A model generated the notes under the pieces. It saw only the letters and a program-made list of their open reading frames with translations. It searched no databases and was not told the DNA's origin. The translations under genes and the position numbers were made by a program. A DNA stretch of 64,000 nt. It comes from Longimicrobiales bacterium (lineage in GTDB: Bacteria; Gemmatimonadota; Gemmatimonadetes; Longimicrobiales; Gaopeijiaceae). The DNA lies in the NCBI GenBank assembly GCA_965198065.1, contig CBDAON010000004.1, positions 1,472,001-1,536,000 of the forward strand, written 5' to 3'. Of the stretch, positions 2,243 to 41,724 are shown one piece after another (the stretch's first letter is position 1; every line of letters begins with the position of its first letter).

Positions 2243-2287
2243 GGGCGAGTCGATCGAGCCCGCGTGGGCAGCAAGCGCCCGGCCGCT

Positions 2288-3937: not shown

Positions 3938-3988
3938 CGTTAGACTCCCGGTCGGTCGAGGCCCTCCCCTCCGCCCCCCGGCAACGGA

Positions 3989-8577: not shown

Positions 8578-8716
8578 AGAGGCCGGTCCGAGCCTCAGTT
8601 GCGGCCCCGCCCTTGCTTCCCCCCGGACGCATTTCTACCGTGGTCTCTCCCACGCTCGGAGGCGTTCGCTCGGGGCGCCTTCCCCCTTGTGCGGCCACTA
8701 CACCCGGGAGATCGTG

Positions 8717-9902: not shown

Positions 9903-10000
9903 GCCGATCCTCCTTCACTCCCATACGTTGAAGTGGAACTCGTGACCCCGCCGGGCGTACCGGCTCACCGCACTCGACACCACCCTTCCCGGAGACACCA

Positions 10001-10483: not shown

Positions 10484-10498
10484 TCTACGCAAGGACCT

Positions 10499-10536
10499 CC
10501 ACCGCGCCCCCGTCGCGCTCGCGGTGGGCGCGGTGG
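10499..10536. terminator. Hairpin between convergent genes
   Basis: CCACCGCGCCC...GGGCGCGGTGG inverted repeat. Confidence 0.5.
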
Positions 10537-10576
10537 CGCCGAGGGCTCTCGTCAAGCACCGGGCCGAGGGCTCTCG

Positions 10577-15330: not shown

Positions 15331-15401
15331 TGGCGGCCCAGCTGACAAGTGGCTGTGACTGTCAACCGGGTTAGCTGTAGGGGAATGGGATACCTGCTCC
15401 A

Positions 15402-15473
15402 ATGACCAGCCGTTTTGAACACGCCCTCGTGTTCACCGCGCAACTCCACCGAGAGCAGCGGAGGAAGGGCTCT
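15402..15473 (+). pseudogene. N-terminal fragment of an HD-domain (small alarmone hydrolase / Mesh1-like) protein
   Basis: MTSRFEHALVFTAQLHREQRRKGS, then breaks into a GAGTCCGG short repeat. Confidence 0.6.
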
Positions 15474-15623
15474 AGCGTTGAGTCCGGGAGTCCGGGAGTC
15501 CGTGAGTCCGAGGCCGTCGGGTGGGGTAGCAAACCAGCACGAGCCAGCGGCCGGCGCCACTGTCAGAGTCCACCGTGGGGAGGTAGTTCTGAGAACGCAT
15601 TCTAGTGAAGATTTCCGTACTGA

Positions 15624-18175
15624 GTGCAGGCCATCGTGAGCGACTCACAGGAGAGTGGCGAGACCTCGATTCCTTACTTCAGGGAGATCGTCAGGCACGA
15701 TCCCTACCCGTGGCAGCGGTGCTTGTATAAAAGGTTTGTCGAAGGGAGTGTCCCCAAAGCCTTGGATATCCCGACCGGCTTGGGCAAGACCCTTTGCGTG
15801 CTTCTTTTCCTACTCGCACGGATCCGGAATACTGCACTACCCACGCGGGTCATCTACATCGTTGACAGGCGCGCCATCGTCGATCAGACAGCGACCGCAA
15901 TCCGGACATGGATCGAACGCATTGCCGAGTTGCCAGAGTTCGCGGGAGTGCTCGACGCGACTTCCGCGTTCTCGTCCGATCTTCCCGTCCAACTCGGCGT
16001 TTTGCGAGGCGGCTTAGCGGACGATGGCGAGTGGCGAATCGATCCCGCCAGACCGGCGGTCGTCGTCGGTACTGTCGATATGATCGGGTCCCGTATGATG
16101 TTCTCAGGTTACGGAGACGGGCGATCACGCCGACCGATGCATGCGGGACTCTTGGGCCATGACAGCATCGTCATGCTGGACGAGGCCCATTTATCGCCGG
16201 CGATGGCGGTACTCATCCACACCATCAATCAGCTCCAGAGCCACCTGATGTTCCAGACCATGACGCTGTCGGCGACGAGCACCGATACCGAAAGCGTGTT
16301 TCAACTCCTTCCCGAGGACGAGGCCAATCCCGCAGTTCGTAGCCGCCTTCATTCGGTCAAGACACAGAGTCTCCATCAGGTCGGGAAACCCGTGGATCGG
16401 GTCGGCCGCATTTGTGAGGTGGCCACCGCTCATAAATCTGGCTCCGTCGCGGTGTTTACCCGAACTGTCGCGGATGCCGAGAAGATTGCGGCGAAGCTGA
16501 TCAGCATACTCGACGATGGCTTCGAGCGCGTTGCACTACTGACGGGGACGCTCTGCGGGAAAGAACGCGCCGAGCTGGCAGATGGAACGGTCTGGCGGAG
16601 CTTCCTTCCGAATCGGGACCGTGACGCGAGTGCTCCCTCCGTCTACCTGGTGATGACCTCGGCCGGCGAAGTCGGAGTCGATCTGGATGCCGATCACGGT
16701 GTCATGGATCTCAGCACGCTCGATTCGATGATTCAGCGCGTTGGCCGAGTGAACCGACTGGGCCTGACGGAGGCGGACGTTGCGATCGTCTTCACGGAGC
16801 AAGAGGCGGTGGAGTCACCGGCAGAGCCGAAGACGCACAGCCAAAGACTTGCTGCGGCTCGTACGAAGACACTGAAAGTACTTGGGCAGCTTCCCGACCT
16901 CTCTCCTGCGACTCTTCGAGGCCTGGACAAGCAAGTCCTCGAAGAGTGCTGTGTACCACCAGCGCGCCCAGCTCGGCTGCACGCGGAAGTGGTCGAGGCA
17001 TTCGCGGCGACGTCCGCCACGCTCCAGCTCCCTCATGTCTCGATCTATCTGCACGGAGTGTCGGATCAGCCCGATCCGCCCGAGAGCTTTCTGATTTGGC
17101 GCTGGGACGTGGCGCACCTGGTCCAGCTCGGAAACGATGCGGCTGCAGAGGCAATCGCTTTCTTTCGGCCGAGCGCCGATGAGGTCGCTCGTGTGCCAGC
17201 ACGGGTGGCGCAGGACTTGATCCTGTCTGCTCTTGAACGGCAAGGGGCGAGGGGGTGATCGTGGTCGAACCGGGGGGCGATGTCCGTGCTGTCCTGTTGA
17301 TGAGCGAGGACGAACTCTCTTTGCTCGACTACGCGACTGTTTTTCTGCCAACGACTGCCGGAGGCTTGGAATCCTCTGGTCTCCCCTCGAAATTGGCGAG
17401 ACACGAGGTTTCCGACGTCGGTGACAGTGATGATCGGGTTCGTTACGTGGACGCGAGTGGTGATGGGGATGTCGAGGGTGATGAGAGTGAACAGGCACTT
17501 CCAGCTTGGTTGGATCAGGCCATCGAGCTTCGAGTCCCATTACATGACGTCAATGAAGACGACGAGGAACGTTTTCTGGTCTACGCACTACGCCGTTCCG
17601 ATCCGGCGCTCCAAACCGGTGAGAGCAATCTGACCTGGATCGGGGCCTCTACCCAGACTGTGGATGAGCACTGCGCTCTTGTCGGCGCTGCCGCTCGGCG
17701 GATTGGCGCAGCACTCTCACTCCCCGATCATGAAGTTGATGCGTTGGAAGCAGCCGGTCGCTGGCATGACCGCGGCAAGGCGAGGAAGGTGTGGCAACGG
17801 GCTGCCGGCGTTCCCGCCAATGGTCCCCTCCTCGTGAAATCGAGGAAGGGGCGTTTCCGTCCGGCGTTACTCGGTGGCTATCGCCATGAGTTCGGCTCTC
17901 TCGCCGAAGCGGAGCGGGAAATCCCGGTGAAATCTCCCAATCGCGAGCTCATCTTGCACCTGATCGCCTCTCACCACGGGCGGGCACGGCCAGGCTTTCC
18001 CCAGTCTCGACAGTGGGACCCGGATGTTCCCTCCGCGTTGAACCGACGGCTCGCCATCGAAGCGGCGAACCGCTTTGCAAGCCTTCAGGCCGAGTATGGG
18101 CCGTGGCGACTCGCATGGTTGGAGGCTCTCCTGAAGGCTGCGGATGTCTACGTGTCGAGTCGCAATGGGAAGTGA
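15624..18175 (+). pseudogene. cas3: Type I-G (I-U) Cas3 helicase with C-terminal HD nuclease, split by a frameshift at ~17255
   Basis: PYPWQ, PTGLGKT, VDRR, GTVDMIGSR, DEAHL, EVGVDLD, QRVGRVNR; downstream ORF has HDRGK, RHEFGS, SHHGRARP. Confidence 0.88.
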
Positions 18176-18806
18176 GGGCGTAATGGAGTGGCACATCGAT
18201 CCCCGCAATCCCGGAGAAGTATTCGCGTGTGCCGGATTCGCACATCTCGCCTGGCGCGCAGACCCGAAACTAAAAACCGGCTTCGAGTCGAACGATCGAT
18301 TCCGCTTCGTGACTCCGGATCTCTCGGCGGTGCTCGACCGTCTGGCGGAAGCATCTCTTGAAGGGACAGAGGACGGACTCCGCTTCGCCGGCGTCGAACT
18401 CGACTGGTGGCGGGAATGGGGGTTGAATCCCGGACTCAAGAACTGGGCGGGGCAGCAATCCGCGCTGACGGTTCACGAGTCCCTACTCCGTGCTGCAGAA
18501 GGATCAAGCCCGGCCGACTGGCTCACTCATGCGGCTCCGACCACCGGCCGACTCAATCTCGACACCGACGGGACTTGGAACGCTCTGCATATGGGTTGGA
18601 GCTTGAACGAACATCAAGAGGCCAGGATGGTTTGTCGGCCCTGGGTCGAACTCCTAGCTTCGATCGGACTCCAAGCCTTTCCCGTCGAAGGCCGTAGATC
18701 GGAGCGCCGTTTCAGTTACAGCCTATATGGCGAGTGCGGTCGCCGTGGCGGCCGCCAACCGTCTACGCTGTCGAGTGCAGTTGCCGCCTTTGGCGGCTAC
18801 GGGCCA
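18165..18806 (+). pseudogene. cas8g: Type I-G Cas8g2-like protein, 3' end joined to cas7
   Basis: DPRNPGEVFACAG, LKNWAG, GWSLN, VELLASIGLQ; lies between cas3 and cas7. Confidence 0.65.
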
Positions 18807-19195
18807 AGCCAACTCCGAGATCCTCGCTTTGACGTTCAGGCAAAGATTGGAGCCGATCGAAGGCCCCGATGTGCCGGTATTCCCTCCGACCTACCCAGCT
18901 CCAGAGCGAGGGCAGCACCGCTTCGAAACCCCCTATACCGTCAACGAAACTAAGGACGGTACTCGGATCTGCGATCTCGATTCCGTTCAGTCGCAAGCAA
19001 ACCGGATGGAGGCGGCCTTCACGACCGACCTCGCCGACATCGTTCCTCAGCACGTCGTAAAGGCAGGCACTCATCAGGTTGCGCTCACTGAGTTGCCACA
19101 CCGGATCGTCGATGCATCGATACGGGCCACCGATCTCGCTGACAGCATCCACCAGTGCATGCTGGACGTCAGCTCGGGAGACCCGGTACCCCTCG
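18807..19195 (+). pseudogene. cas7: Type I-G Cas7 (Csb1) N-terminal fragment
   Basis: LEPIEG..VFPPTY, LDSVQSQANRME, LPHRIVDA; truncated. Confidence 0.85.
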
Positions 19196-19338
19196 AGGAC
19201 ACACGAGCAAAGTCTGCGCTCCGAACAGCCCTGCAGGCTCACCGTGGAAAACTAGGCAATGTTGATCCCAAAGCGCTGGCCGCGTAGTGGTCGGACCGCA
19301 CCGACGCGGCGCATGTCAATATCCGTCGGGACGACCCC

Positions 19339-20196
19339 TCACTCGCCGAGCAGGTACTTGAAGCCGAGCATCATCGACCAGGGATTGATGCGACTGATTT
19401 CGGTGTCGTTCATTATGGGAAACGGATGCACCTCGTAAGGACTCGTGTCCACAAGGTCGTCGACCCAGCTGTAGGACGCCTTCAGGCCGAGTAGGAGCTT
19501 GTCGCCCAGACGATAGTCGGTGCCGGCAAAGAGCTGCTTGGAAAGACCGCTGTCGGACAGATCAACGTCCTGCAGACTGTTGTACTCCGCCGCGGGACGA
19601 CCGCCGCATGGCTGACTAATGCACGAGTATTCGCTGCTGAAATACAGCCCCGACAGCTCGACGAAGGACAGGCCCAGCCCGGCGCCCAGGTAAAGCATGA
19701 CCCGGCTTTCTGCGAACGCGAAGTCGTGATAGGCGTTCAGGAACAGCGCGCGCGCGGCCAAGGCATCGACCCTGGTGGTGTTGGTCGACGTATAGTTGCT
19801 GTCTTCGTTAGGCAGGATCGGAGATCCATCGAGAAAGGTAATGTCGGTGAATTCTTGCTCGATGTTGTTCGATCGCTGGGAGACCGACACCTCCACGCGC
19901 ACGTCGCCGAAATTTCGACCGACGGCGACTTCAAAAGCAGTACCCAGATCCGAGGGAAGGTCGTAAAACCAGCGGTAGCCCTCGGGCGTGCCGCTGCAAA
20001 GGTCATTCGGGTAACAGATATTGTCCCGGTTATGGCCCGCCTGCTTCATCACGGGATTCCAGTTCGTCCCGCCGCTCGCGCTCACGTACCACCCGTAAGA
20101 CCCCGGCTGTTGACCCGCACCTTGTTCCGCTCGGCCGAGCAGGGTGCAGATCGCAAGCGTGGCTCCGAAGGCATGTAACTGCCAGGACAAAGGCAT
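19339..20196 (-). CDS. Outer-membrane beta-barrel protein (Opa/Msp2-like)
   Basis: Signal peptide, WYVSASGG, NAYHDF..YLGAGLG, C-terminal LGFKY. Confidence 0.7.
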   Translation of the reverse strand: MPLSWQLHAFGATLAICTLLGRAEQGAGQQPGSYGWYVSASGGTNWNPVMKQAGHNRDNICYPNDLCSGTPEGYRWFYDLPSDLGTAFEVAVGRNFGDVRVEVSVSQRSNNIEQEFTDITFLDGSPILPNEDSNYTSTNTTRVDALAARALFLNAYHDFAFAESRVMLYLGAGLGLSFVELSGLYFSSEYSCISQPCGGRPAAEYNSLQDVDLSDSGLSKQLFAGTDYRLGDKLLLGLKASYSWVDDLVDTSPYEVHPFPIMNDTEISRINPWSMMLGFKYLLGE

Positions 20197-20272
20197 TTGA
20201 GTCACCTCCAGTTGGAGTCCGATGGCCTTCATTTGAGGATACCGCCTCCCAAGGACCCCGATCAACGGATCC

Positions 20273-20314
20273 TGACCTGCCCCCGAGAGTGGTACCGCTC
20301 TTGGGGGTGGGTCA
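20273..20314. mobile_element. 42-bp imperfect palindrome: two fused IS3-type inverted repeats
   Basis: TGACCTGCCCCCGAGAGTGGTACCGCTCTTGGGGGTGGGTCA; halves match the IS end at 33579-33604. Confidence 0.65.
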
Positions 20315-20526
20315 AAGCCTCCCTCAAGTAAGGTTTTGTTGACTTCCATCGTGCGCGAAGTACACTGCTTCGACAGGGTGGCTGGGGAACTCGGTGCTTG
20401 GCCCGGGTTCGGTCAGATCGCCGATTGCGATTGAAGGTGGCCCGTGAACCCGGGTGACGGTTGGTGCGCGATCAGCCGCATCGTCTTTCTGGAGAGCTCA
20501 TCATAAAGAGTAAAGCTCTCTCACGT

Positions 20527-21135
20527 ATGCGACGAGCGATCATTGGCCTACTCAGTGCTGCGCTGGCAGTGTTATGTGTGCCCCCATCGGCTCGGGCACA
20601 ACAGCAACGATCATTGTGGCGTGGCCTAGTTGTCGCGCCCGAGCAGCGCTGCTCTGCCTACAACGCGGACGACTACCGGTACCCACAGTCTGTAGAAGAT
20701 CAGATCGTCACCGAACTCGGCGGTGTCTATGGTCCCTACACCGGCCGATGGTTCGCCAGCCAGTTCGAGACCGACATCGAGCACATGGTCGCGCGCTCAG
20801 AGGCGCACGACAGTGGCCTCTGCACAGCAGACGAGGCGACCCGGCGTCGCTTCGCAACCGACCTGCTCAACCTGACGCTGGCGGCTCCCGGAGTGAACCG
20901 TAGCCAGAAGGGTGCCCGCGACGCCACCGATTGGCTTCCCGATCAGAACACTTGTTGGTTCGCTGGTCGCGTCATCGCGGTTCGTCAAAAGTACCGGCTC
21001 ACCATCGACCGGCGCGAAGCCGATACCCTTGAGCGCGTACTGGCTGGTTGCACCTCGACCAGCTTGGTCGTGGTGGGTCGTGGCACCGTGCCACCCCGCA
21101 AGACGAAGCCCAAGGGCCGCCAGGCCGGCTCATGA
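20527..21135 (+). CDS. Secreted HNH-like nuclease (DUF1524-type)
   Basis: Signal peptide; DIEHMVARSEAHDSG, NLTLA..VNRSQKGARDA..WLP. Confidence 0.75.
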   Translation: MRRAIIGLLSAALAVLCVPPSARAQQQRSLWRGLVVAPEQRCSAYNADDYRYPQSVEDQIVTELGGVYGPYTGRWFASQFETDIEHMVARSEAHDSGLCTADEATRRRFATDLLNLTLAAPGVNRSQKGARDATDWLPDQNTCWFAGRVIAVRQKYRLTIDRREADTLERVLAGCTSTSLVVVGRGTVPPRKTKPKGRQAGS

Positions 21136-21728: not shown

Positions 21729-22770
21729 TGATCTGCCCCCTAAAACGAGACCGAGTCCAGTTTTAGAATTCTAGACGGGTCGAGACATGGGAAAGGAGGT
21801 CAGAATGGCAGCGCCAAAGAAGCTAAGCGCGGGACAGATCATCAACCAGCTGCGCAAGGCGGAGGTGGGCCTAGCGAACGGGAAGAGGGTCAAGCAAGTG
21901 TGCCGGGAGCTTGGGGTGAGCGAAAGGAAGGCGTGCCGGGTGTTGGGCCAGGCGCGCTCGACGCAGCGTCGGATCCCGAAGCGAAGGGAGGACGAGGAGG
22001 CGCTGAGACAGGGCGTGGTGAAGGTGGCCCGACGGTTTGGACGCTACGGGTACCGGATGGTGACGGGGATGCTGAGGACGCAGGGCTGGGGTGTGAACCA
22101 CAAGCGGGTGGAGCGGATCTGGAGGCTGGAGGGGCTCAAGGTACCAAGTAAGCAGCCGAAACAGGGCCGCCTGTGGTTGACGGACGGCTCGTGTATCCGA
22201 CTGCGGCCCCTGTACCGACATCACGTATGGGCGTATGACTTCGTGTCCGACCGGACGCATGATGGACGGCCGCTCAAGATGCTGACGGTCCTAGACGAAT
22301 ACAGCCGGGAGTGCCTGGCGATCGTGGTGGCCCGCAGGCTTCAGTCGGACGATGTCCTGCAGACGCTGAGTGAGCTGTTTGCCGAGCATGGTCCCCCGAC
22401 GAACCTACGTTCGGACAACGGGCCGGAGTTCACGGCCCAGGTGGTTCGGCAGTGGCTTGGAGGGTTGGGTGTGAAGACGCTGTTCATCGAACCCGGCAGC
22501 CCGTGGAAAAACGGCTACAACGAGAGCTTCAACGGCACGCTCAGGCAAGAGCTGTTGAGGCGCGAGATTTTCTATTCGCTCCAGGAGGCGAAGGTGCTGA
22601 TCGAGCAGTGGCGACGCGAATACAACACCGTCCGACCCCACAGCTCTCTGGGCTATTTACCGCCCGCTCCTGAAGCAATCCGACCCGACCCGAAGCTGCT
22701 CAACCTGCCCTTGCTACTCGGACCTCACCCCAGACAAAATGAGGCGGTTCGACTAACACTCTAGGTGGTC
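21729..22770 (+). mobile_element. IS3-family (IS407-like) element; orfA and orfB fused by internal deletion; right end truncated
   Basis: Left IR TGATCTGCCCCC; ORF 21787-22764 with W.YDFV, RSDNGPEF, ESFNG, YNTVRPHSSLG. Confidence 0.88.
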
Positions 22771-27453: not shown

Positions 27454-28590
27454 GTGCTGGAGAAGGGTCTGAACGGCGTCATCAAGAAGATCGCCGCCCT
27501 GCTCGAAGGCGGTACGGTCGAATCGGAGCGTCGCGCCTCCCTGCATATGGCGTTTGGCGTCGCCCTGGCGACCCTGGGTGAGCGGGAGCCCGGGACAGAG
27601 CGCCTTGAGCAGGCCGTGGCTGTCCACACTGGGGCGCTCAAGGAGTGGACGCGCGTGCGGGTGCCCCTCAAATGGGCTATGACGCAGAGCAACCTCGGTG
27701 TTGCCCTTACGGCCTTGGGTGAGCGGGAGCCCGGGACAGAGCGCCTTAAGCAGGCCGTGGCCGCCTATACCGAGGCGCTCAAGGAGCGTACCCGTGAGCA
27801 GGTGCCCCTCGACTGGGCCGGGACGCAGAGCAACCTCGGCGCCGCCCTTACGACCCTGGGTGAGCGAGAGCCCGGGACAGAGCGCCTTAAGCAGGCCGTG
27901 GCCGCCTTCACCGAGGCACTCAAGGAGCGTACCCGTGAGCAGGTGCCCCTCAACTGGGCCGCGACGCAGAGCAACCTCGGCGCCGCCCTTACGGCCCTAG
28001 GCGAGCGGGAGCCCGGGCCAGAGCGCCTTAAGCAGGCCGTGGCCGCCTATACCGAGGCGCTCAAGGAGCGTACCCGTGAGCAGGTGCCCCTCGACTGGGC
28101 CGGGACGCAGAACAACCTCGGCGCCGCCCTGGCGACCTTGGGCAAACGGGAGCCCGGGCCAGAGCGCCTTAAGCAGGCCGTGGCCGCCTATACCGAGGCG
28201 CTCAAGGAGCGTACCCGTGAGCAGGTGCCCCTCAATTGGGCCGAGACGCAGAGCAACCTCGGCGCCGCCCTTACGACCCTAGGCGAGCGGGAGCCCGGGC
28301 CAGAGCGCCTTAAGCAGGCCGTGGCCGCCTATACCGAGGCACTCAAGGAGCGTACCCGTGAGCAGGTGCCCCTCAAATGGGCCGCGACGCAGAACAACCT
28401 CGGTGTTGCCCTTACGGCCCTGGGCGAGCGGGAGCCTGGGACAAAGCGCCTTAAGCAGGCCGTGGCCGCCTTCACCGAGGCGCTCAAGGAGCGTACCCGT
28501 GAGCAGGTGCCCCTCGACTGGGCCATGACACAGAGCAACTTCGACCGCGCCATTCAGATCTTACGTGACCGGGGCAGACGGTCCCGCTGA
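27454..28590 (+). CDS. TPR-repeat protein (seven near-identical 47-aa units), probably N-truncated
   Basis: 141-bp tandem unit recurring at ~27580, 27721, 27862, 28003, 28144, 28285, 28426; WAxTQxNLGxAL. Confidence 0.85.
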   Translation: MLEKGLNGVIKKIAALLEGGTVESERRASLHMAFGVALATLGEREPGTERLEQAVAVHTGALKEWTRVRVPLKWAMTQSNLGVALTALGEREPGTERLKQAVAAYTEALKERTREQVPLDWAGTQSNLGAALTTLGEREPGTERLKQAVAAFTEALKERTREQVPLNWAATQSNLGAALTALGEREPGPERLKQAVAAYTEALKERTREQVPLDWAGTQNNLGAALATLGKREPGPERLKQAVAAYTEALKERTREQVPLNWAETQSNLGAALTTLGEREPGPERLKQAVAAYTEALKERTREQVPLKWAATQNNLGVALTALGEREPGTKRLKQAVAAFTEALKERTREQVPLDWAMTQSNFDRAIQILRDRGRRSR

Positions 28591-29850: not shown

Positions 29851-31282
29851 CGGATCATCCCCGCGTAGGCGGGGAACACTGCGCCCTCTTCGCCTTCTTC
29901 TGTAGATACTTCGGATCATCCCCGCGTAGGCGGGGAACACTGGGGGGGGTCGGACAGCTCACCCCACGTATCCGGATCATCCCCGCGTAGGCGGGGAACA
30001 CCGCCGAATATGCCACCCACCTGGACCTCCTATCGGATCATCCCCGCGTAGGCGGGGAACACGTGAGTGCGATCGCGCCGTTCGACTCCGTAGCCGGATC
30101 ATCCCCGCGTAGGCGGGGAACACAATACATCCAGCACCACCTGGTCCATCGTATCCGGATCATCCCCGCGTAGGCGGGGAACACATGGACTGCTCCACAC
30201 CCGTCTTGTGCGTCGCCGGATCATCCCCGCGTAGGCGGGGAACACGGCGTACAGTTCCGCGAGTCCGGTCAGGACATCGGATCATCCCCGCGTAGGCGGG
30301 GAACACACCTCGCGATCTATCTTCTCGTAATACTGCCTCGGATCATCCCCGCGTAGGCGGGGAACACTCGTCGAGAGCGGCCGGGATCTCGACCACCTTC
30401 GGATCATCCCCGCGTAGGCGGGGAACACTCCTCGGCCATGCCGCGCACCTGACCAGTAACCGGATCATCCCCGCGTAGGCGGGGAACACTTTCGCGCCGG
30501 CCGTTCTAGTAAACATTGACGCGGATCATCCCCGCGTAGGCGGGGAACACCCATGATCGAAGTATGCCTCGATCGCCGGGTACGGATCATCCCCGCGTAG
30601 GCGGGGAACACATCACACCGCACATCGCCCGGACTGTTGCCGCCGGATCATCCCCGCGTAGGCGGGGAACACTGTCGCCTACCGTCCGGAGCCGCCTCCG
30701 GAGACGGATCATCCCCGCGTAGGCGGGGAACACGATGACCGAGTAGGCCATAAGCGATCCGGTGGCGGATCATCCCCGCGTAGGCGGGGAACACGTGGCA
30801 GCCACACTAGGAGGGATCCCCGGGGTCGGATCATCCCCGCGTAGGCGGGGAACACTGAAGCGCACGGTCTGCAAGTACCTCCTGGAACGGATCATCCCCG
30901 CGTAGGCGGGGAACACGCAGATGTCGATCCCCTCGAGTGACTTGATCTCGGATCATCCCCGCGTAGGCGGGGAACACATTCCCAGACACCCCCCAGCCCC
31001 CGCAGATGGCGGATCATCCCCGCGTAGGCGGGGAACACCCCATGCCATGGTACCGTTCGGCGAGCTGTGCCGGATCATCCCCGCGTAGGCGGGGAACACG
31101 TAGGGCTGGTGCTCATGGAGGGCGGAATGGCCGGATCATCCCCGCGTAGGCGGGGAACACGATCCAGAGCACGCTCACGGGCGCCACTGGTGCGGATCAT
31201 CCCCGCGTAGGCGGGGAACACGAGAGATCGCGCACAAGGCGGAAGCGATCGTCCGGATCATCCCCGCGTAGGCGGGGAACAC
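29851..31282 (-). CRISPR. Type I-E CRISPR array, 24 repeats and 23 spacers
   Basis: Identical 29-bp repeat (minus strand GTGTTCCCCGCCTACGCGGGGATGATCCG), 32-bp spacers, 61-bp period. Confidence 0.98.
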
Positions 31283-31304
31283 CGTGGGCCGACTCTTTCA
31301 ACCG

Positions 31305-31904
31305 GACGCGGTCCTTCGCGCCCACGACGGCGGTCTTGGTCACCGGGCCGCGCCCCAGGCGCGCCCTCTTGACGGCGTGCTTGTTCTTCTCGAGCCCGCC
31401 GATGTAGCACTCGTCGACCTCGACGGGACCGGCGAAGGTCGCACCCTCATGCGCCCACGCCTCGCGTAGCCGGTGCAGCATATGCCAGGCGGAGCTTTGA
31501 GCGATTCCCAGATCCCGGTGCAGCTTCATGGAAGACACGCCCTTCAGGTTCGTGGTCATCAGGTAGGCCGCGATCGCCCACTTGCGAAGTGGGATGTTGG
31601 AGTCCTGCATCGCGGTACCCATACGGACACTGAACCGCTTCCGGCAATCGCGGCACCGCAAGGGCATGGTCTTGTGCTTCGCGCCGGTCTGGACGTTCAC
31701 GCTTCCGCAGTGCGTGCAGGCGGGCTCATCGCCCCAGCGGGCCTTGGCGAACCACTGCTCGGCCGCCGCATCGTCGGGGAACCTGTCGAACGCCTCGATC
31801 AGCGACAGTCCCTTCCGGTAGCTCTTCCCTGGCCCTTTCTCGCTCGCCATCCTATTAGCTCCCTTGCGGTTATCGCTTCTACCCGGCACTATAAATATAG
31901 TGCC
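31305..31904 (-). mobile_element. IS1595-family element, 3'-truncated
   Basis: ATG 31850; CTHCGS / CRDCRKRF zinc ribbon, KGVSSMKLHRDL, VEVDECYIGG; end palindrome GGCACTATAAATATAGTGCC. Confidence 0.88.
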
Positions 31905-31944
31905 CAGGGGGGTGGTTTGCAAGGGAGGCTTGGGCACCATTCGC

Positions 31945-33845: not shown

Positions 33846-34865
33846 AGTGCCTCCGCCCAAACAGGTCCTTGCGCCGGTAGGGCGCCTCGCCGCGGTACCG
33901 ATTCTGACTCCGGTGTACTCCGAATCCTGCAACAAGAAAGCCAGGGAGCTTCGACACTCTCCGGGCCTTGCGGGACTACTTGTGGGCTGCGACCGTGCTA
34001 CTTGGAGAGCATGAGAGATGCGTCAACGATCGAGGTAGCGGCCAATGAAGCAATGGGTCAAGGACGGCGTCGCCGAGGTTGCAAGACAACTTGCCGACGA
34101 GGAACCCCATCGTGTTGGGCCAGGGGGTTCCCCTTGGCAGTGTTTGCTGCCGTGCGTGATCGACGGCCAGACATCTTGTCGCACATCGAGAGATACCGTC
34201 ACGGGGTAGACCCCTATCAAGTCGTGGCATGTTTCATCCCGCCGCGCGACCGTCTCCTATCCCAAAGCTGATCTGCGCTGGATACGGCCCCGTGGGGAGT
34301 GGGAGATCGCCCGGTCCGACTTGTCTCTCCGCCTTCCTCGCCCAGAACTTCGTCCGCAGCCATCCCACTCGGTCCGACGACTTCTCCCTCATATTTGTAT
34401 ATCTGAAGTGATACAGAGACCACTGTTGCGAACGACAACATGTTGTATAACAACATCTTATGATCGGCATAGCTAGTCCTAGTACTTATACGATTACTTG
34501 CCGTAATCACGTCACCTGTACTGTGCCTGATGTGCACTCGCCGATCAGCACCGACCCTCGCCGATCCGCGTTCAAAATCGGCCTCCAGGGAGCCGTCTCG
34601 AGCGCCATGTCGCGAAGCCGTGGATCAACGTTCCGGGACTCGAGGATCGGTGGAGGTCGTTCAGCTCGACGATCCGCTTGAGGCAGGCCTGCAGGTCGCC
34701 ATACTCTTTGAGCACCCGGTCATCCTTCTTGCGGATGGCCTGCTCGATTCGGGCGATCTCGCGGCGAGCCGCACTGTCGGGTTCCGGAACAGCGGAGGGG
34801 CCGGATGCTGTAGATGTGTTGGTCCAGTTCTCGAGGATCGTCAGGGCCCGCTGCAGCTCCCTCTG

Positions 34866-35338
34866 AGGTGTTGCGACGACCTCTTGAATTCACCCAGTAC
34901 ACGTCGATCGCATTCGGGCTCCGCTGCAAGCATATGGGTGTTCGGCCCTCGATGGGCTCGGTGGGTGATGCGTACGACAACGCGCTGTGCGAGAGCTTCT
35001 TCGCGACGCTCGAGTGCGAGCTGATCGAACGCAGGCGCTTCGCGAATCGTGTGGAGGCCAAGATGGCGGTGTTCCGCTTCATCGAGGGCTGGTACAACCC
35101 GCGTCGCAGACACTCAGCGCTGGGCTACAAGTAGCCCGTCAATTTCGAAGCGAAGCACTCGGAGGCCGCGTGAACACTTGGGCCTTCAGAGCGCCGAGGC
35201 TCTTCTAACCTTGGCGGATTCTAGCTGCCTTCCACTCCCCTGCGCCTCTGGCGCAGCGGAAGCTTCTGACTCCATCGGGGGTGGGGTACAGAAACAAAAC
35301 TCAAACACTTACCTGTCCACTGAATCGGGGGAAGTCCA
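34866..35338 (+). mobile_element. IS3-family 3' fragment preceded by an IS30-like end
   Basis: QYTS..SMGSVGDAYDNALCESFFATLECE..YNPRRRHSALG; right IR CTGTCCACTGAATCGGGGGAAGTCCA; GTGTTGCGACGACCTCTTGAA at the join. Confidence 0.75.
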
Positions 35339-35519
35339 GCTCAGATGGTGGAGGGACTCTTAGAGAGGGTCTCGGTCTAGCAAGGCTTCTCCACCTGACG
35401 CAACGTATACCCGCCGCTGCCGGGGCTCTGGACCCATTCACCCTCGACCCTTTGCTGTCGAGTGATTAGGGTGCATTGTTCGACCTCCTCAGTTCTGGCA
35501 AGCAGCTTTGGAGCAGCTC

Positions 35520-38500
35520 ATGTCACAGATTGCCTCATTCAGTTCTGTGCGCGACGACCTGGCCGAGATCATTTCTCCAGGTACCGCTGGGCTAGTGTTG
35601 GGCGCCGGCGCGAGTGAGAGCAGTGGGGGTATGCTTTGGGGGCCACTCGTCAAAGAGTTGTGCGATAGGTTTCCGAAAGCACCGGTCAGTCCATCACAGC
35701 ATCCGTTTGAGATCTGCGATCTTATTTGCGAAACACCTGTCTATGGCCGGGCTCCACTAGTTGAATTCGTGAAGGAGCGCTTGGGCTCCCTGGTGCCGTC
35801 TCAGGATTACGCTCAAATCCCACGAGTGAAGTGGCAAGCTATTTTCACGACTAACTACGACGACCTCCTTGAACAAGCATACCGATCCACCTCCCGCCGA
35901 CAGAACCTAGACACCGTCCACCTTCTCCCAGATGCTCTGGTACTTGCTGCGCGTCCCAAACACGTACTTGGCTGTTGCCTGATGGGATCTGTGAGGAATC
36001 GCTTCGATTCGTCCGCGTCTCCGGTCCTGACTTGGAGCGACTTTTACTCGACCCAAAGTGATCGTGAAAAGATGCTCGCGCTTGTGGAAACCATTCTCCT
36101 CCAGGGCGGAAAGATCATATACGTCGGATACAGCTTCGACGACTTCATACTTTTGAGGGTAGTGGAGGCTGTGGTCTCCAAGATTGGCCTGCAGGCAGCC
36201 CCCTACGGTTACGCTTTGATGGGTTCCGGCGACGGACCTACTGGGACCCACCTACACCGATTACAGGCTCGAAAGGTGGTGCCCATTCGCGGATCCTTTG
36301 AGGATCTCGCGGCACTCCTTCGCGATATCGCAGACGGAAGCCTGGAGCCTAGGCATGGAGATGCCCCCAAGCTTGAGAGTCCAGGAGGAGGACGAGCGCT
36401 GTTCATCCATAATGAGGAGATTCGGCTTGATGATGAAGTCGCCTCAGTCTTTGACGAGTCCTTCCAAGTCCTTTCAGAAGAGGAGATCATAGATCCCCGT
36501 GGGTCGGAATCTGAGAGCACCGATGAATCGTCATTGGCGAAGAGCTTCCTAGAGGGAATGACTCTTGGATGGCTCCCCTATGTGAAAGGGTGGACATACT
36601 GCAGACCGGCATATCATGAAATCTACGGCAATGTCCGAACCACCGCGGAGCTTGGGGACCCAGCGGCTAATGAAGTGATTCTGATCCATGGCCCTGCAGG
36701 CCTCGGGAAGTCTGTTATGGTGAGACAACTAGCCTTCGACTTGTATCGAAAGGCTCAGATTCCCGTGTTGCTTGCGCGAGCGTCCTGGATCTCCCGTCCC
36801 GATATCCGCCTACTCGACAGGTATCTCAACGAAATCGAGCTGGCGCGAACTTCGAATGGCAACCTGCCGGCACTCGTAGTCATTGTCGATCAGGCAGAGC
36901 TCCTGGAACACAACCTTCCCTATCGAGCCGCAAAATACTTACGAGGCAAGGGACGATCAGTTCTCTTTGTGCTCACAGCCCGGACTAATGAGTACTTTCG
37001 GGACAACACCGGAGAGAAGAATCTTGGAGATCCTCGAGAATTTGAGATACCAGAGAAGCTTGAAGAAGGTGAAGTTGCGGGCCTAATCGCCCACATCCAG
37101 AAGCTGGGCGTATGGGATAGGCCCATGGTCACGACAGAAGCGTTTTGGAAGGAGTACGTCGCCAAGGAATTTGATAACACATTCTTTGACACAGTCTATT
37201 CGCTCGTGGAGCCCACTCGAGAACCTCTGCGGAAACGAGTTTGGTCCGAGTTTGAGAACCTCAGTGCACTCGCGCAGAGAGCGTACATATATATTGCTGC
37301 CCTTCACCAGTTCAGCATACCACTGAAAATGGAAGTGCTTCGCCGTGCGCTGGACGTCCCGTTCACAGATTTTCTACAAGATATCATCAAGAGTGATGCC
37401 AGAGCGGTGCTCTTTTCGGAAAGCCAGGGAGCGGATCTCAATCTCTATTTTCGCGGGCGATCACGCATGATCAGTGAGCTCGTGTTCAGCCGTGCATTGG
37501 TTGACCCACAGGAGCAACTGGACACATTCAAGGAGATCGTTCGAGCCACCGAGCCAAGCGAGATGTTCGGTAACGACGAACTGGATGCCTTGCGGCATCT
37601 CCTCGTTCATGTTCTTGGGCCAAGCGGCTACGATCACCGCTTTTCGGTTGAAGAGACAGCCGAGCTGTTCCGTGAGGCAGTGGAGCAAGTAGAAGATGAC
37701 GTCTTGGAACACCACTGTGGGTTGGCGGAGCGTGAGGCGGGCCGGCTACTTTCTGCCAAGCAACACCTTGAAAAATCCCTCGCCATGTCGGCGCTTATTC
37801 CTGTGGATTACACCGTCCAGAGAGAGGCGCCGCAAAATATTGAAAATTCACTGGCGGTCGTTTGTGGGCTGCTCGCTCTCGAGGCGTTGAAACGAAAGTC
37901 GCTCCCAGAGTCGGATGGCTTATATGAGGATGCGAAGCGGCACTTTGTGAATGCGCGTGCAGGGCAGTTCCCTAATGCTGCTGCATACGATGCCCACGCC
38001 CGCGTCCTGCGGGATCGTGCCGCGATCCGCTTTGCACAGGGTTCGCCGGACCAGGCACTTGCCTTGGGCGAAGCTCTAGCGATCGTGGATGACGGGATTG
38101 ACAGCGTTAATGAAGATTACCGTAAAGGTCTCGTGGAGCTGCGCTCCAGGATCCTGTATCAATTGGGGGACTTTCAAGAGGCGATCGCAGATCTGGCCGC
38201 GCGTGCCGAGAAGGGCAACCTACGGAATCGGGCCCTCTACCACATTATTCTTGGCCGTCTCCTGATGGATCTTCCCAACGTCAAAGGGAAGCATTTCAAA
38301 AAAGCTCTCTCCCACGCTACGAGCGCCTGCGAGTTAGACCCGACGCTATTCCAGGCATGGAAACTGAGGGCGAAGTGCTATGCGAGGCTCCAACCTAAGG
38401 ACCGAGTAACACAGTTTGAATACCTGGAACAGTGCCTGGTGCTACCGGGCGGTCGCGAGGACACGTGGGTGCTTTACAACTCGGCGGTCATAGCCTTCGA

Positions 38501-38819
38501 CTTAGAGAAATTCACAGGTTCTTTTGAGCACTTTCGCCAACTCAGGAAAATTGCGAAGGGAGATGAAAGGCAGTTTGGAATGATAGAATACGCAGGGGTT
38601 AGGGGAGGACTAGCGGATCCTCTTGAGTTCACTGGACGCGTCGTACGGACCGGACCCGCCCGCCTTGGAATCGAGTGTGAAGAGCTGTCGGTTTTTTCAC
38701 CGGTGTGGTTCAACCCAAAAATCCAGCGATTCTACACCGCACGCCAAGGGCATAATGTAAAATTTCTTGTTGGCTTCAATTACCGTGGGCTCAGCGGCGA
38801 GGATGTGGAGCAGACATGA
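35520..38819 (+). CDS. SIR2-like + STAND NTPase + TPR + C-terminal OB-like protein (Avs-type defence candidate)
   Basis: LGAGAS, FTTNYD, VGYSFDD; GPAGLGKS Walker A, VVIVDQAE Walker B; helical repeats; beta-rich tail; visibly lower GC. Confidence 0.8.
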   Translation: MSQIASFSSVRDDLAEIISPGTAGLVLGAGASESSGGMLWGPLVKELCDRFPKAPVSPSQHPFEICDLICETPVYGRAPLVEFVKERLGSLVPSQDYAQIPRVKWQAIFTTNYDDLLEQAYRSTSRRQNLDTVHLLPDALVLAARPKHVLGCCLMGSVRNRFDSSASPVLTWSDFYSTQSDREKMLALVETILLQGGKIIYVGYSFDDFILLRVVEAVVSKIGLQAAPYGYALMGSGDGPTGTHLHRLQARKVVPIRGSFEDLAALLRDIADGSLEPRHGDAPKLESPGGGRALFIHNEEIRLDDEVASVFDESFQVLSEEEIIDPRGSESESTDESSLAKSFLEGMTLGWLPYVKGWTYCRPAYHEIYGNVRTTAELGDPAANEVILIHGPAGLGKSVMVRQLAFDLYRKAQIPVLLARASWISRPDIRLLDRYLNEIELARTSNGNLPALVVIVDQAELLEHNLPYRAAKYLRGKGRSVLFVLTARTNEYFRDNTGEKNLGDPREFEIPEKLEEGEVAGLIAHIQKLGVWDRPMVTTEAFWKEYVAKEFDNTFFDTVYSLVEPTREPLRKRVWSEFENLSALAQRAYIYIAALHQFSIPLKMEVLRRALDVPFTDFLQDIIKSDARAVLFSESQGADLNLYFRGRSRMISELVFSRALVDPQEQLDTFKEIVRATEPSEMFGNDELDALRHLLVHVLGPSGYDHRFSVEETAELFREAVEQVEDDVLEHHCGLAEREAGRLLSAKQHLEKSLAMSALIPVDYTVQREAPQNIENSLAVVCGLLALEALKRKSLPESDGLYEDAKRHFVNARAGQFPNAAAYDAHARVLRDRAAIRFAQGSPDQALALGEALAIVDDGIDSVNEDYRKGLVELRSRILYQLGDFQEAIADLAARAEKGNLRNRALYHIILGRLLMDLPNVKGKHFKKALSHATSACELDPTLFQAWKLRAKCYARLQPKDRVTQFEYLEQCLVLPGGREDTWVLYNSAVIAFDLEKFTGSFEHFRQLRKIAKGDERQFGMIEYAGVRGGLADPLEFTGRVVRTGPARLGIECEELSVFSPVWFNPKIQRFYTARQGHNVKFLVGFNYRGLSGEDVEQT

Positions 38820-39257: not shown

Positions 39258-39584
39258 ATGCCATTCTGCCACACGCCACACTGGACCGAGTTTCAGGAAC
39301 GCTACCAAGACGAGCTCACGACCGCACCTGAAGAGCTAGCTCTGAAGCATCTTGCTGGGACAGCGTATGTCCTTGGTCACGAATATCCAGAATATCGGGG
39401 ATGGAATGACCTAGCTGCAGCTATAGCAACGCATTGGCCCTCTCGTCAGGAAGCCTTCCGCCGGGTCCGCGAAAAGGCGGAGTTCATCATGCAGATCAAT
39501 CCGGATGACGTTGAGAATCAGCTAGGGCTATTGCTGGACGACATGGGTTTCAGCCGCCCAATCGGCGCTTCCACGCGCGCATAA
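39258..39584 (+). CDS. Hypothetical protein or fragment
   Basis: Protein-like lower-GC ORF; an IS-IR-like sequence lies upstream at 39130-39154. Confidence 0.35.
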   Translation: MPFCHTPHWTEFQERYQDELTTAPEELALKHLAGTAYVLGHEYPEYRGWNDLAAAIATHWPSRQEAFRRVREKAEFIMQINPDDVENQLGLLLDDMGFSRPIGASTRA

Positions 39585-39603
39585 ACAGAAGGGGCCCAGG
39601 TTC

Positions 39604-40199
39604 TCAGCGCTCGTCGGCGAGGTAGGCAGCCCAGTCGTCCATGAGCCGGCGGCGGCGCTCGAACAGGTCCGTGCGCCGATAGGCCGCCTCGACGTAGGCG
39701 CGGTGCCCGGGTTGCTGCACCCGCGCCAGCGCCGGGTCATCCGGCCGGCTCCAGCCCTCCTCGGCGTTGAAGGCATCGCGGAGCGGGTCGAAGTCTTCTG
39801 CCAGCCCGGCGGCGCGATGTTGAGGCTCCGGCCGGTCTCCAGGTCGCATCGCGCGGCGAGGACATGCACGTGAACGCAGCCGTCGCGCTCGCGGTGCACC
39901 ACGGCCGCCCAGGCGTAGCGGTCGGGCTCCAGCCCCGCCCACGCCGTCCTCTCGAACTCGTCGAGTACGGCTTCGATCTGCGCGTCGGTCGGAGTGTCGT
40001 CCGGTGCCCAGGCAATCACGCCCGACGTGTACTTGTGCTCGAACGCCAGCGCGTCGGCCACCGCAGCCACCTGATGGGGATCCCCCTGGAGGACCTCCAC
40101 GCCCTCGCGCAGTTGCCCTGTCGTGTCCCGCGCCCCGAGGAGGTAGTCGGCCGCCTCCCGGGCCGAGCCGGTTCCGCGGGCCAGGAACTTAATGTGCAT
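39604..40199 (-). pseudogene. MOBP-type relaxase N-terminus, frameshifted and fused to an integrase tail
   Basis: MHIKF..GS..AADYLL, YTSGVIAW, HRE...HVHVL; ends VEAAYRRTDLFERRRRLMDDWAAYL. Confidence 0.8.
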
Positions 40200-40440
40200 C
40201 GGCGTCGGGGCGGACGACGGGGGCCAACGCTGCGAGCGCCCGCTCGATGGCGACCAGGTGGGCGACGATCTCGACGGTCTCGGCGTTCGCTTTGAAGGTA
40301 TTGGCCCAGCGGGCGATCTGGTTCAGGTTCGCCCCGATCCGCGCCAGCTCGCGGGTCCGCTCTCGCTCCACCCCGGCGTGCGCCACGGTCCAGGGGCGCA
40401 CCCGGCCCACCGACCGGCGCACCAGATCCGACAGCGTTAA
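40189..40440 (-). pseudogene. mobC: MobC relaxosome accessory protein fragment
   Basis: ELARIGANLNQIARWAN. Confidence 0.8.
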
Positions 40441-40518: not shown

Positions 40519-41724
40519 TCAACCGACCCGCTGGGCCTCCGGGTCCCGACGCTCGCCCGCCAGATACGCAGCCCAATTGTCCATCAGGACGCGCCTGCGC
40601 TCGAAGAGGTCCGAACGCGCATAGGCAGCTTCCACCTTGTTACGAACCGCATGCGCCAACGCGGCCTCGGCGACTTCACGCGGTGCGTTGGAACACTCGC
40701 CGCACCAGTCCCTGAAGCTCGACCGGAAGCCGTGCGGCACGGCCGCGATACCCAGGTCTCGAAGCAGCGTGGAGAGTCTGCTGTGGGCAGATGCGCGGCC
40801 CTCCGGCGACGGGAAAACGAGACCGCTGCCGCCGCCGAGCGTCCGCGCCTCGCTCAGTACCTCCACAGCGCGCCCGGACAGCGGCACCCTGTGGGGGCGA
40901 TGGGCCTTCGTGCGTTCGGCGGGAACCGTCCACTCTCGAGCCTCCAGGTCGATTTCATCCCAGTGCGCCAAGCGAACCTCTCCCGAGCGGGCCACCGTCA
41001 ACACCAGGAACTCGAAGGCGAGTTTCGTGGCCGGGTAAGCGTGCGACTTCCGCACCGTCTCCATCGCGCCCGCGACCTTCGAGTGAGGCAACGCGCGCAT
41101 GTGCCGGACTACGGCTTGCTGTCGGCCAAGCGCTTGACCGAGCACATCGCTGGCGGGGTTGTCCGGCCGAAGCCCCATCGCCACCGCCCACTTCATCACC
41201 GCCCCGATGCGCTGGCGCACCCGTCTGGCAGTCACCTGCTTGGCGTGCCAGATCGGTGTCAGCACCGCCAGGATGTCGGCTGTCGTTATCTCCCCAACCG
41301 GTCGATGGCCCAGCTGTGAGAACGCATAGACGCGCAGGCTGGAGACCCAGTCCTTTGCATGCCTGGCGCTGCGCCAGCCCGGCCGCAGCTGTTCCAGAAC
41401 GCGGGCGGCCGCTTCGGCGAACGTGGGCATGTCCCGGACCTTGTGCCGCTCGGTACGCGGATCACCGCCCGAGCGCGCGATCTTGCGGTTCATGAATGCC
41501 TTCTCGCGGGCCTCGGCCAGCGATACCAGCTGGTAGCCCCCCAGGCCCAGCGTGCGGTTTCGACCCTGGATCCGCAGACGCTGCTCCCATCGGCGCGCGC
41601 CCGATCGGTCCACGCGCAGATAGAGGCCGTTCCCATCGCAGTAGTATCCGGGCTTGGCGCTGCGCACGAAGGCCGCGCTGAGTGCGTTATGCGGGCGCCT
41701 GCCTCGGTGTTTGGGCAAATCCAA
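40519..41724 (-). CDS. P4-like tyrosine integrase with arm-binding domain
   Basis: DGNGLYL, ARSGEVR, K..RPHRVPLS, HGFRSSFRDW, LAH..VEAAY. Confidence 0.93.
   Translation of the reverse strand: MDLPKHRGRRPHNALSAAFVRSAKPGYYCDGNGLYLRVDRSGARRWEQRLRIQGRNRTLGLGGYQLVSLAEAREKAFMNRKIARSGGDPRTERHKVRDMPTFAEAAARVLEQLRPGWRSARHAKDWVSSLRVYAFSQLGHRPVGEITTADILAVLTPIWHAKQVTARRVRQRIGAVMKWAVAMGLRPDNPASDVLGQALGRQQAVVRHMRALPHSKVAGAMETVRKSHAYPATKLAFEFLVLTVARSGEVRLAHWDEIDLEAREWTVPAERTKAHRPHRVPLSGRAVEVLSEARTLGGGSGLVFPSPEGRASAHSRLSTLLRDLGIAAVPHGFRSSFRDWCGECSNAPREVAEAALAHAVRNKVEAAYARSDLFERRRVLMDNWAAYLAGERRDPEAQRVG

Follow-up and report, generated by a model that had tools for sequence, protein, structure and literature searches.

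The gene described here lies on contig CBDAON010000004.1 of a Longimicrobiales bacterium (GenBank assembly GCA_965198065.1), in a stretch of 64,000 nucleotides (positions 1,472,001 to 1,536,000 of the contig), which is called the window below and to which the coordinates refer. It occupies positions 35520 to 38819 of the forward strand and consists of 1099 codons followed by TGA in one uninterrupted frame; a preliminary description, made from the sequence alone, had rightly called the open reading frame (ORF) intact and free of frameshifts, and only its stated length of 1100 amino acids is one too many. Pfam searches, an AlphaFold model and fold searches divided the encoded protein (P0001) into four parts, which are, in this order, a complete SIR2 domain, a P-loop nucleotide-binding domain (NOD) of the nSTAND5 type, a region of helical repeats and a C-terminal cold-shock-like OB barrel. 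The best reading of these data is that P0001 represents an uncharacterised long subfamily of single-gene defence sensors, which resemble Avs5 on the one hand and the core of SAMD9 on the other. The features of the gene are the following:

35510..35513, forward strand: GGAG, 6 nt before the ATG, resembling a Shine-Dalgarno sequence (putative function)
35520..36344, forward strand: SIR2 domain (residues 1-275; Rossmann part and small subdomain), from Pfam SIR2_2, structure alignment and profile matches
35601..35615, forward strand: GAGAS loop for NAD binding (residues 28-32), a conserved motif
35847..35864, forward strand: TTNYDD (residues 110-115), a conserved motif
35982..35984, forward strand: codon of Met155, at the position of the catalytic His of sirtuins ('HG'; 'NG' in Avs5), from hidden Markov model (HMM) alignments
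36345..36644, forward strand: linker domain between SIR2 and NOD (residues 276-375), a beta-hairpin and helices in the secondary structure of the model
36543..36995, forward strand: STAND nucleotide-binding domain (nSTAND_NTPase5, residues 342-492), from Pfam
36690..36713, forward strand: Walker A, GPAGLGKS (residues 391-398), with the canonical Lys397, from the sequence
36876..36899, forward strand: Walker B, VVIVDQAE (residues 453-460), with Asp457 present, from the sequence
37020..37619, forward strand: helical and winged-helix part of the NOD (residues ~501-700, boundaries approximate), from the model; superposes on the NOD of SAMD9 and EfAvs5
37620..38564, forward strand: helical-repeat (TPR-like) region (residues ~701-1015), sixteen helices in the model
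38565..38795, forward strand: five-stranded OB / cold-shock-like barrel (residues ~1016-1092) with the family motif GFNYRG (1085-1090), from a model of the tail alone

The longest ORF call at the locus, 35508..38819 on the forward strand, starts with TTG and has 1103 amino acids, whereas the ATG at 35520, which gives 1099 amino acids, is the position where the N-termini of the homologues align. Between 35.5 and 38.8 kb no other ORF longer than 114 amino acids overlaps the gene. A scan for sigma-70 promoters gave 0 sites versus 1.9 expected and is uninformative for this organism, and terminator-like sites were not more frequent than in shuffled sequence. The G+C content (GC) in the four 1-kb bins between 35 and 39 kb was 0.574, 0.545, 0.535 and 0.542, i.e. 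0.54-0.57 versus the 0.63-0.72 prevailing in most of the window, with flanks at 0.65-0.72, in agreement with the lower GC noted before, and the GC of third codon positions was 0.58 in the gene versus about 0.8 in typical neighbours. The composition is foreign and the gene is horizontally acquired. It is present in a single copy in its own genome (87.6% complete).

The AlphaFold2 model of the whole chain, computed from a 15-sequence family alignment, had a mean predicted local distance difference test score (pLDDT) of 81.5 and a predicted template modelling score of 0.62. It is helical from about residue 500 to 1012 and ends in a beta-domain at 1021-1088, which is what the preliminary description had called a long helical repeat region with a short beta-rich tail. 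The SIR2-like and Walker motifs it had listed are also there (GAGAS, TTNYDD and, at residues 203-208, GYSFDD; GPAGLGKS and VVIVDQAE), and both SIR2_2 and nSTAND_NTPase5 scored above their cut-offs. The least conserved part of the protein is the linker domain, the mean identity of which to the query was 0.29 in family alignment A1 versus 0.42-0.51 for the other domains; it falls within the stretch that superposes on SAMD9 389-1309, and is probably equivalent to the 'Delta' domain of SAMD9. Pfam found no effector domain other than SIR2. There was no Pfam match to AlbA_2 at E <= 1, and the SIR2 domain begins at about residue 5.

In the SIR2 domain Pfam SIR2_2 (PF13289) matched residues 107-249 (E 3.3e-13, 50.4 bits versus a cut-off of 24.5), and the profile match to ThsA had an E-value of 1.4e-18. 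When about residues 3-275 of the model were aligned with KomC, BcThsA and SeThsA by VIA-align, 255-261 residues superposed with Z 21-23 and a root-mean-square deviation (rmsd) of 2.9-3.1 Å, and the SIR2 domain of DSR2 gave a Z of about 21. As the match extends over nearly the whole domain of these proteins, the sirtuin domain of P0001 is of the antiphage type and complete rather than reduced. To assess conservation we collected 170 proteins and aligned the 132 that had TTNxD in their first 260 residues, while 38 proteins (fragments, or lacking the motif) were dropped. G28, G30, A31 and S32 of GAGAS are invariant in family alignments A1 and A2, and G28 was found in 129 of the 132 relatives; T110, N112 and D114 of TTNxD were each present in 132/132, G156 in 130/132 and D208 in 127/132. 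N112 and D114 are the equivalents of N110 and D112 of PaAvs5-1, and the role we ascribe to the TTNYDD motif is taken from the work on PaAvs5 (PMC12931631). SIR2 and NOD are conserved to a similar degree (mean identity to P0001 0.42 and 0.48, respectively), and the NAD-contact motifs stay invariant down to relatives of 25% identity.

One position of this domain departs from the antiphage sirtuins of known activity. In the HMM alignments the catalytic His of BcThsA, SeThsA, EcThsA and KomC stands opposite Met155, and the remaining motifs agree column for column; in KomC this is His146, the residue mutated in PDB entry 9xvc. Met was found at this position in 11 of 15 close relatives, the other four having Gln, and in all four relatives of 25-27% identity, which come from other phyla and include an archaeal metagenome-assembled genome (MAG). 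Among the 132 aligned relatives position 155 was Met in 76, His in 28, Phe in 8, Gln in 6, Asn in 6, Leu in 4 and another residue in 4. When 130 of them were classed by the extent of the query that they cover, the distribution was as follows:

End-to-end relatives, SIR2 through tail (n=59): His 0, Met 49, Gln 3, Leu 3, Asn 2, Phe 1, Ala 1
Relatives aligning through NOD or TPR, not the tail (n=48): His 21
SIR2-only or short relatives (n=18): Met 11, His 3, Gln 2, Ser 1, Asn 1
Other relatives (n=5): His 2, Met 1, Phe 1, gap 1

Seven short loci of Avs5 size with a Walker A had HG in six cases and NG in one. Since Met dominates in the OB-tailed relatives, Met155 is a family trait and not a private mutation. 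The preliminary description had taken the effector for a standard SIR2 NADase; this assumption fails, because the catalytic His (Asn in Avs5) is Met in P0001 and the position is non-His throughout the OB-tailed family. It must be added that these sequences are related, so the loss of His represents few events and not 59 independent ones: on a FastTree phylogeny the His/non-His state required only 4 changes. The tree was built from 100 rows (30 of the 130 were omitted for length or coverage) and limited to the first 720 residues, so that the tail would not drive the topology; it has many long branches and only Shimodaira-Hasegawa-like support values. From sequence and fold, NADase activity of the SIR2 domain of P0001 is uncertain.

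A Foldseek search of the PDB with the whole chain gave EfAvs5 (9jap_A) as the first match (E 1.6e-19), in line with the proposed kinship with antiviral STAND proteins. It was followed by the electron cryo-microscopy structures of human SAMD9 (9zjr, monomer; E 1.4e-16, template modelling (TM) score 0.47/0.46), and then by the AVAST5 filament 9nc9 and DSR2. SAMD9 superposes as a rigid body: residues 5-887 of the model fall on SAMD9 389-1309 with Z 19.0-19.4 and an rmsd of 6.0-6.1 Å over 716-720 residues, and with the SAMD9 shell dimer 763 residues were aligned, up to residue 963 of the model (SAMD9 1401). The EfAvs5 alignment spans residues 5-885 of the model (Z 20.4, 672 residues) with an rmsd of 25 Å, a high value that probably reflects a conformational difference, as the EfAvs5 structure is that of the active filament.

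With Avs5 the protein shares the N-terminal PF13289 SIR2 domain, a STAND NOD with canonical Walker A, C-terminal helical repeats and the single-gene format, and EfAvs5 and PaAvs5-1, like P0001, lack the canonical His of 'HG'. The identity to EfAvs5 is only 14%, P0001 exceeds it in length by about 250 residues and has a second block of repeats and an OB barrel that lie outside the match to EfAvs5, and profile similarity to EfAvs5 is confined to SIR2 (query 7-214, E 2e-9). For PaAvs5 an nSTAND3 domain was reported, whereas P0001 has nSTAND5, nSTAND3 being below its cut-off (15.5 bits versus 27.2). Short SIR2-STAND relatives of 809-828 amino acids had nSTAND5 in 5/6 and nSTAND3 in 2/6 cases, which places the NOD of P0001 in the same broad group.

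The likeness to SAMD9 and SAMD9L concerns their core (SIR2-like, Delta, NOD, TPR1, TPR2 and OB domains in 9zjr), whose domain order is the same and whose spacing is very similar. The core had been described before as Sir2-like, P-loop, TPR and cold-shock-like OB domains (Mekhedov et al. 2017); the preliminary description overlooked this published domain order, as it did the Met at the 'HG' position of SIR2. Even the C-terminal end corresponds, as SAMD9 1433-1589 is matched by the tail of P0001 together with the two helices preceding it. The differences are also clear. P0001 has neither the SAM domain nor the AlbA_2 tRNase effector of SAMD9; according to Mekhedov et al. (2017) AlbA_2 lies N-terminal of Sir2 in the SAMD9 family and was lost in some members. 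The Walker A of SAMD9 is GGT/S, a Lys-to-Gly replacement that the same authors regard as diagnostic of the family, whereas P0001 has GKS. The SIR2-like domain of SAMD9 is lid-less, and is described as non-enzymatic and unlikely to bind NAD (PMC13600222), whereas the SIR2 domain of P0001 keeps the small subdomain and the NAD motifs. The identity is 10-11%, so the likeness is structural; consistently, the A1 profile matched SAMD9 chain 37ib_A only weakly (E 0.084), and only over residues 331-416 of the query.

ThsA, KomC and DSR2 share with P0001 the whole SIR2 fold and the motifs GAGxS, TTNxD and GxSFxD. They differ at the catalytic His ('MHG', 'LHG' or 'FHG'), which is Met in P0001, and in the partner of the SIR2 domain, which is SLOG, KomB or the C-terminal domain of DSR2 instead of NOD-TPR-OB. 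The architecture of P0001 is also that described for an 'Avs5 from Desulfobacula sp.' (UniProt A0A1F9N8W4), which Legrand et al. (2025, PMC12680541) named as a structural analogue of SAMD9: it bears SIR2, matches at least 80% of SAMD9 and is without AlbA_2. The link between Avs5 and SAMD9 has thus been published, by Legrand et al. and in the PaAvs5 paper (PMC12931631), and the long SAMD9-like SIR2-STAND form has already been described. In the literature searched, which did not extend to the supplementary tables of PMC12680541 and PMC12931631, there was no mention of a Met that occupies the catalytic position throughout the family or of its link with the OB tail. We also considered whether P0001 belongs to a characterised Avs or Dsr type with high identity, and rejected this: the best PADLOC matches were to SIR2 only (ThsA 1.5e-9, Dsr2 1.7e-4), and the NCBIfam model of Dsr2 scored 17.5 bits versus a cut-off of 1400. 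The protein is a strict member of neither the SAMD9 family nor the characterised Avs5 family, and the earlier suggestion of an uncharacterised subfamily agrees with this.

In the NOD, Pfam nSTAND_NTPase5 (PF25199) matched residues 342-492 with E 4.2e-11 (43.3 bits versus a cut-off of 34); a literature search for nSTAND5 or PF25199 found no paper. G391, G396 and K397 are invariant in alignments A1 and A2, and Walker A is GKS or GKT in 54/59 end-to-end relatives. The second Walker B position, residue 458 (36891-36893), is Gln in P0001 and in its two closest relatives (P0002 and P0003), Glu in other close relatives and Ser or Asn in distant ones. As the catalytic acid is not conserved, this may point to a NOD that binds ATP but hydrolyses it poorly, which is what was reported for SAMD9L. 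Pfam matches to TPR in the repeat region were all below their cut-offs, and the region up to residue 884-963 superposes on TPR1 of SAMD9; by analogy with Avs proteins, the helical repeats are the presumed sensor.

The tail (residues 986-1099), folded alone with 18 aligned sequences, gave a pLDDT of 92.4. Its best Foldseek matches were cold-shock proteins, with CspA at a target-normalised TM of 0.70 (rmsd 2.7 Å, 70 columns, E 6.9e-3). In a VIA-align comparison with 48,161 representative chains the cold-shock domain (CSD) of Unr came first (Z 6.8, 67 residues, 2.4 Å) and human SAMD9 1433-1589 second (Z 6.7, 99/114 residues, 3.3 Å), and nearly all of the top 50 were CSD, S1 or OB domains. Pfam CSD and S1 did not match the tail at E <= 1. 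From the structure matches we assign the tail, at fold level, to the cold-shock-type OB barrels, which is also the fold predicted for this part of SAMD9 by Mekhedov et al. (2017). The fold proposed in the preliminary description is therefore supported. The nucleic-acid binding proposed with it does not stand as stated: the tail may bind nucleic acid, but this is one option among others, as the OB domain of SAMD9 docks on the SIR2 domain during activation (PMC13600222).

Full-length homologues have 25-59% identity to P0001. A search of 1.84 billion cluster representatives gave 1082 matches with E <= 1e-3, 415 with E <= 1e-10 and 85 with E <= 1e-30, many of them 1050-1100 amino acids long and aligned end to end, and Protein Atlas, queried with homologue P0012, returned only clusters of the same SIR2_2 and nSTAND5 make-up. 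No full-length match was found in 40 genomes related to the host, of which 24 belong to its family (including one of its genus) and 16 to its order; one of the latter had a weak match to SIR2 only. In a collection of 185,579 species full-length relatives were found in at least 7 loci, the search being pattern-based and the count therefore a lower bound; the seven hosts are a member of the Longimicrobiaceae, of the Thermodesulfovibrionales, of WOR-3, of the Ectothiorhodospiraceae and of the Phycisphaerales, an unclassified bacterium and an archaeon of the Methanobacteriota. The GC of the gene was below that of the locus in 6/6 loci with flanks (e.g. 0.37 vs 0.50 and 0.33 vs 0.49). With the window included the deficit relative to the surroundings is 4-16 GC points, at host GC values of 0.39-0.68, and an AT-shifted composition seems to stay with the family in whichever genome it enters. 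Partial SIR2(-NOD) relatives were found on plasmids (6) and on IMG/VR contigs (3) and in no phage (0).

No conserved neighbour gene was found among the six homologue loci with flanks. At the Longimicrobiaceae locus (L001) a SoFic-type Fic protein (8463-9680; PADLOC E 9.4e-78) is encoded about 260 bp upstream of the homologue (43% identity), on the same strand; no other known defence gene was seen beside the homologues at these six loci. The Phycisphaerales homologue (L007, 6890-10124) consists of two overlapping ORFs of 476 and 635 amino acids, perhaps owing to a frameshift in this copy or to a mistake in the assembly. The Methanobacteriota MAG (L006) has a full-length member with 27% identity at 803-4153; a NAD kinase gene lies 2.4 kb downstream of it, and a KAP-NTPase and TPR gene pair is found at 8284-11474.

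In the window the gene lies, as had been described, between insertion sequence (IS) remnants and an integrase/mobilisation module, and a CRISPR array is located further upstream:

29851..31282, no strand assigned: CRISPR array, ~4.2 kb upstream of the gene; 24 identical copies of a 29-nt repeat, period 61 nt
31197..31940, reverse strand: ORF with an IS1595 transposase zinc-ribbon and DDE fragments, overlapping the 3' end of the CRISPR array
34814..35134, forward strand: IS3-type integrase-core remnant (rve_3), 106 amino acids, upstream of the gene (E 2e-13)
39528..40199, reverse strand: relaxase fragment, from a domain match
40189..40422, reverse strand: MobC, from a domain match
40519..41724, reverse strand: tyrosine integrase of 401 amino acids, from a domain match

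No complete cas operon was seen beside the CRISPR array. Integration at a tRNA gene was considered and rejected, as the sole tRNA of the window, tRNA-Asn at 53113, is far from the integrase. The surroundings of the gene are a decayed mobile/defence island. Judged by context, the evidence for a role in defence is mixed; the enrichment in defence islands that had been expected among homologues was weak, being seen in 1/6 flanked loci, while the window itself does fit it.

In the reading that we favour, and to which we give a probability of roughly one half, P0001 is a single-gene antiphage sensor of the Avs5-like/SAMD9-core-like kind, in which a phage cue would lead to assembly through NOD and SIR2 and then to consumption of NAD+ by the SIR2 domain; each functional step of this scheme is a prediction. 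Binding of the phage trigger would fall to the helical repeats, alone or together with the OB barrel, as in Avs proteins. ATP binding, not hydrolysis, may license assembly, given that E, Q, S and N all occur at the second Walker B position. The OB barrel could bind nucleic acid or, as in SAMD9, dock on a SIR2 domain and stabilise the open state. Contact between SIR2 domains would then switch on catalysis, as in EfAvs5, ThsA and DSR2, and Asn112 and Asp114 would have to cleave nicotinamide without the usual His or Asn, which is the weakest step. This scheme is favoured by the fold matches, the selection acting on the NAD pocket, the presence of SIR2 as the sole effector domain, the lack of a conserved partner, the mobile/defence setting and the accessory distribution. 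There is also the precedent of Avs5 proteins in which Asn replaces the catalytic His and which are reported to be active NADases (PMC12931631; PMC11897194).

Several observations weigh against an antiphage NADase. Active members of Avs5 have Asn or His where P0001 has Met155, and none of the 59 end-to-end relatives has His there. In PaAvs5-1, replacement of the catalytic Asn by Ala or Gln (N153A, N153Q) is reported to have abolished protection (PMC12931631). DSR2 and KomC with bound NAD were deposited, according to the entry titles, as His-to-Ala or His-to-Asn variants, His mutants being the usual inactive forms of these two proteins, and the literature searched yielded neither an NADase with Met at the His position nor a Met-type SIR2 domain in a STAND protein. 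The fold matches of the tail did not include an E-value below 1e-3 or a chain at Z 8. Only 1/6 flanked homologue loci had defence neighbours, the other five having housekeeping neighbours, and no full-length member was found on 72,556 plasmids, 50,697 phages or the IMG/VR contigs. The PADLOC Avs models did not match P0001 or any of 8 family members scanned, and no NCBIfam model passed its cut-off; the silence of PADLOC is, however, uninformative, because 0/6 of the short SIR2-STAND relatives were called either.

The Met at the catalytic position bears most directly on what the SIR2 domain does. The main alternative, which we are inclined to doubt, is that the domain no longer hydrolyses NAD+ and has become a regulatory or assembly module. 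It would act by binding NAD+ or a related nucleotide, or merely through contacts of SIR2 with SIR2 and with OB, which is the role proposed for it in SAMD9/SAMD9L, and something else would have to supply the output, e.g. sequestration of phage nucleic acid or protein by the OB/repeat region, or an unlinked partner. Met, Gln, Leu or Phe at this position across the OB-tailed family, the inactivity of PaAvs5-1 N153Q and N153A, and the superposition of the global arrangement on autoinhibited SAMD9 would all suit such a module. In SAMD9 the SIR2-like domain is considered non-enzymatic, and activation of SAMD9/SAMD9L is reported to need SIR2/SIR2 and OB/SIR2 contacts (PMC13600222; preprint 10.64898/2026.02.01.703102), and in the present family the loss of His accompanies the OB tail. 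On the other hand, we found no second effector domain and no conserved neighbour gene that could supply the output, a full ThsA-type fold with invariant GAGAS, TTNYDD and GYSFxD is hard to explain for a pure scaffold, and the link between His and tail rests on related sequences with only 4 changes on the tree. A more far-reaching proposal, which appears rather improbable to us, is that the family corresponds, in bacteria and archaea, to the entire SAMD9 core at an intermediate stage, with the NAD pocket still intact but with Met having taken the catalytic position as the OB tail was acquired; SIR2 would now be a switch that binds NAD+ or another nucleotide or docks the OB domain, instead of an NADase, and this would amount to a defence mechanism that is novel for SIR2-STAND proteins. 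Intact NAD-pocket motifs with a lost general base could also mean that SIR2 catalyses another NAD+-dependent reaction, e.g. the transfer of ADP-ribose to a protein or nucleic acid, of phage or host, that is bound by the OB/repeat region, where an acceptor nucleophile takes the place of water and a general-base His is dispensable. Sirtuins as a class transfer ADP-ribose to varied acceptors (PMC12700824), and the C-terminal fold is of a nucleic-acid-binding type; but no known SIR2 transferase matched better than the NADases and the OB tail had no Pfam CSD or S1 match at E <= 1, and we consider this reaction unlikely.

The remaining explanations question the defence role or the protein itself. 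Housekeeping neighbours at most homologue loci and the lack of a defence-database match would agree with a STAND NTPase that serves signalling outside defence, and signal transduction was suggested as a role of bacterial SAMD9-like proteins (Mekhedov et al. 2017); the gene might equally be selfish cargo of a mobile element without antiphage benefit. We regard either as quite unlikely, because the closest solved relatives are all immune proteins, the patchy distribution across phyla and domains together with the deviant GC is typical of defence genes, and the window contains the CRISPR array and other defence remnants. That the gene is a dead relic, i.e. an intact frame that yields no working protein, like its broken neighbours, is very improbable. 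It does sit among IS, relaxase and Cas fragments, residue 458 of Walker B is Gln and the L007 homologue is split into two ORFs; yet a frame of 3.3 kb without a stop has kept all the family-invariant residues (Walker A, ARTNE, the HH pair and the tail motifs), Met155 is the norm of the family, and Gln458 is common to the two closest relatives.

The relation between the catalytic sirtuin effectors and the non-catalytic SIR2-like domain of SAMD9 is at issue in the current papers that link Avs5 with SAMD9. The family described here combines the complete domain order of the SAMD9 core with a full ThsA-type SIR2 domain with invariant NAD motifs, and has a hydrophobic residue at the position where every tested antiphage sirtuin needs His or Asn. 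It thus poses the question whether a Met-type sirtuin still destroys NAD+ or has turned into a regulatory module, and offers a small bacterial model, of a size suited to soluble protein, for the SIR2-OB latch proposed in SAMD9 activation. If P0001 turns out to be an ordinary NADase, it merely extends the diversity of Avs5.

Two further parts of the window deserve mention. A second stretch of low GC (about 0.60) with defence-type remnants extends over 14207-21135 and is followed by a transposase gene:

14207-15040: Zeta_toxin-like ORF
15624-17258: Cas3-like helicase
18727-19287: Cas_GSU0053 protein
20461-21135: GmrSD_C fragment
21787-22764: IS3-family transposase, after GmrSD_C

Between this stretch and the CRISPR array, at 27556-28543, there are seven tandem copies of a 141-bp unit (89% matches) within a TPR_10-rich ORF (27454-28590), the product of which is a recently expanded repeat protein.

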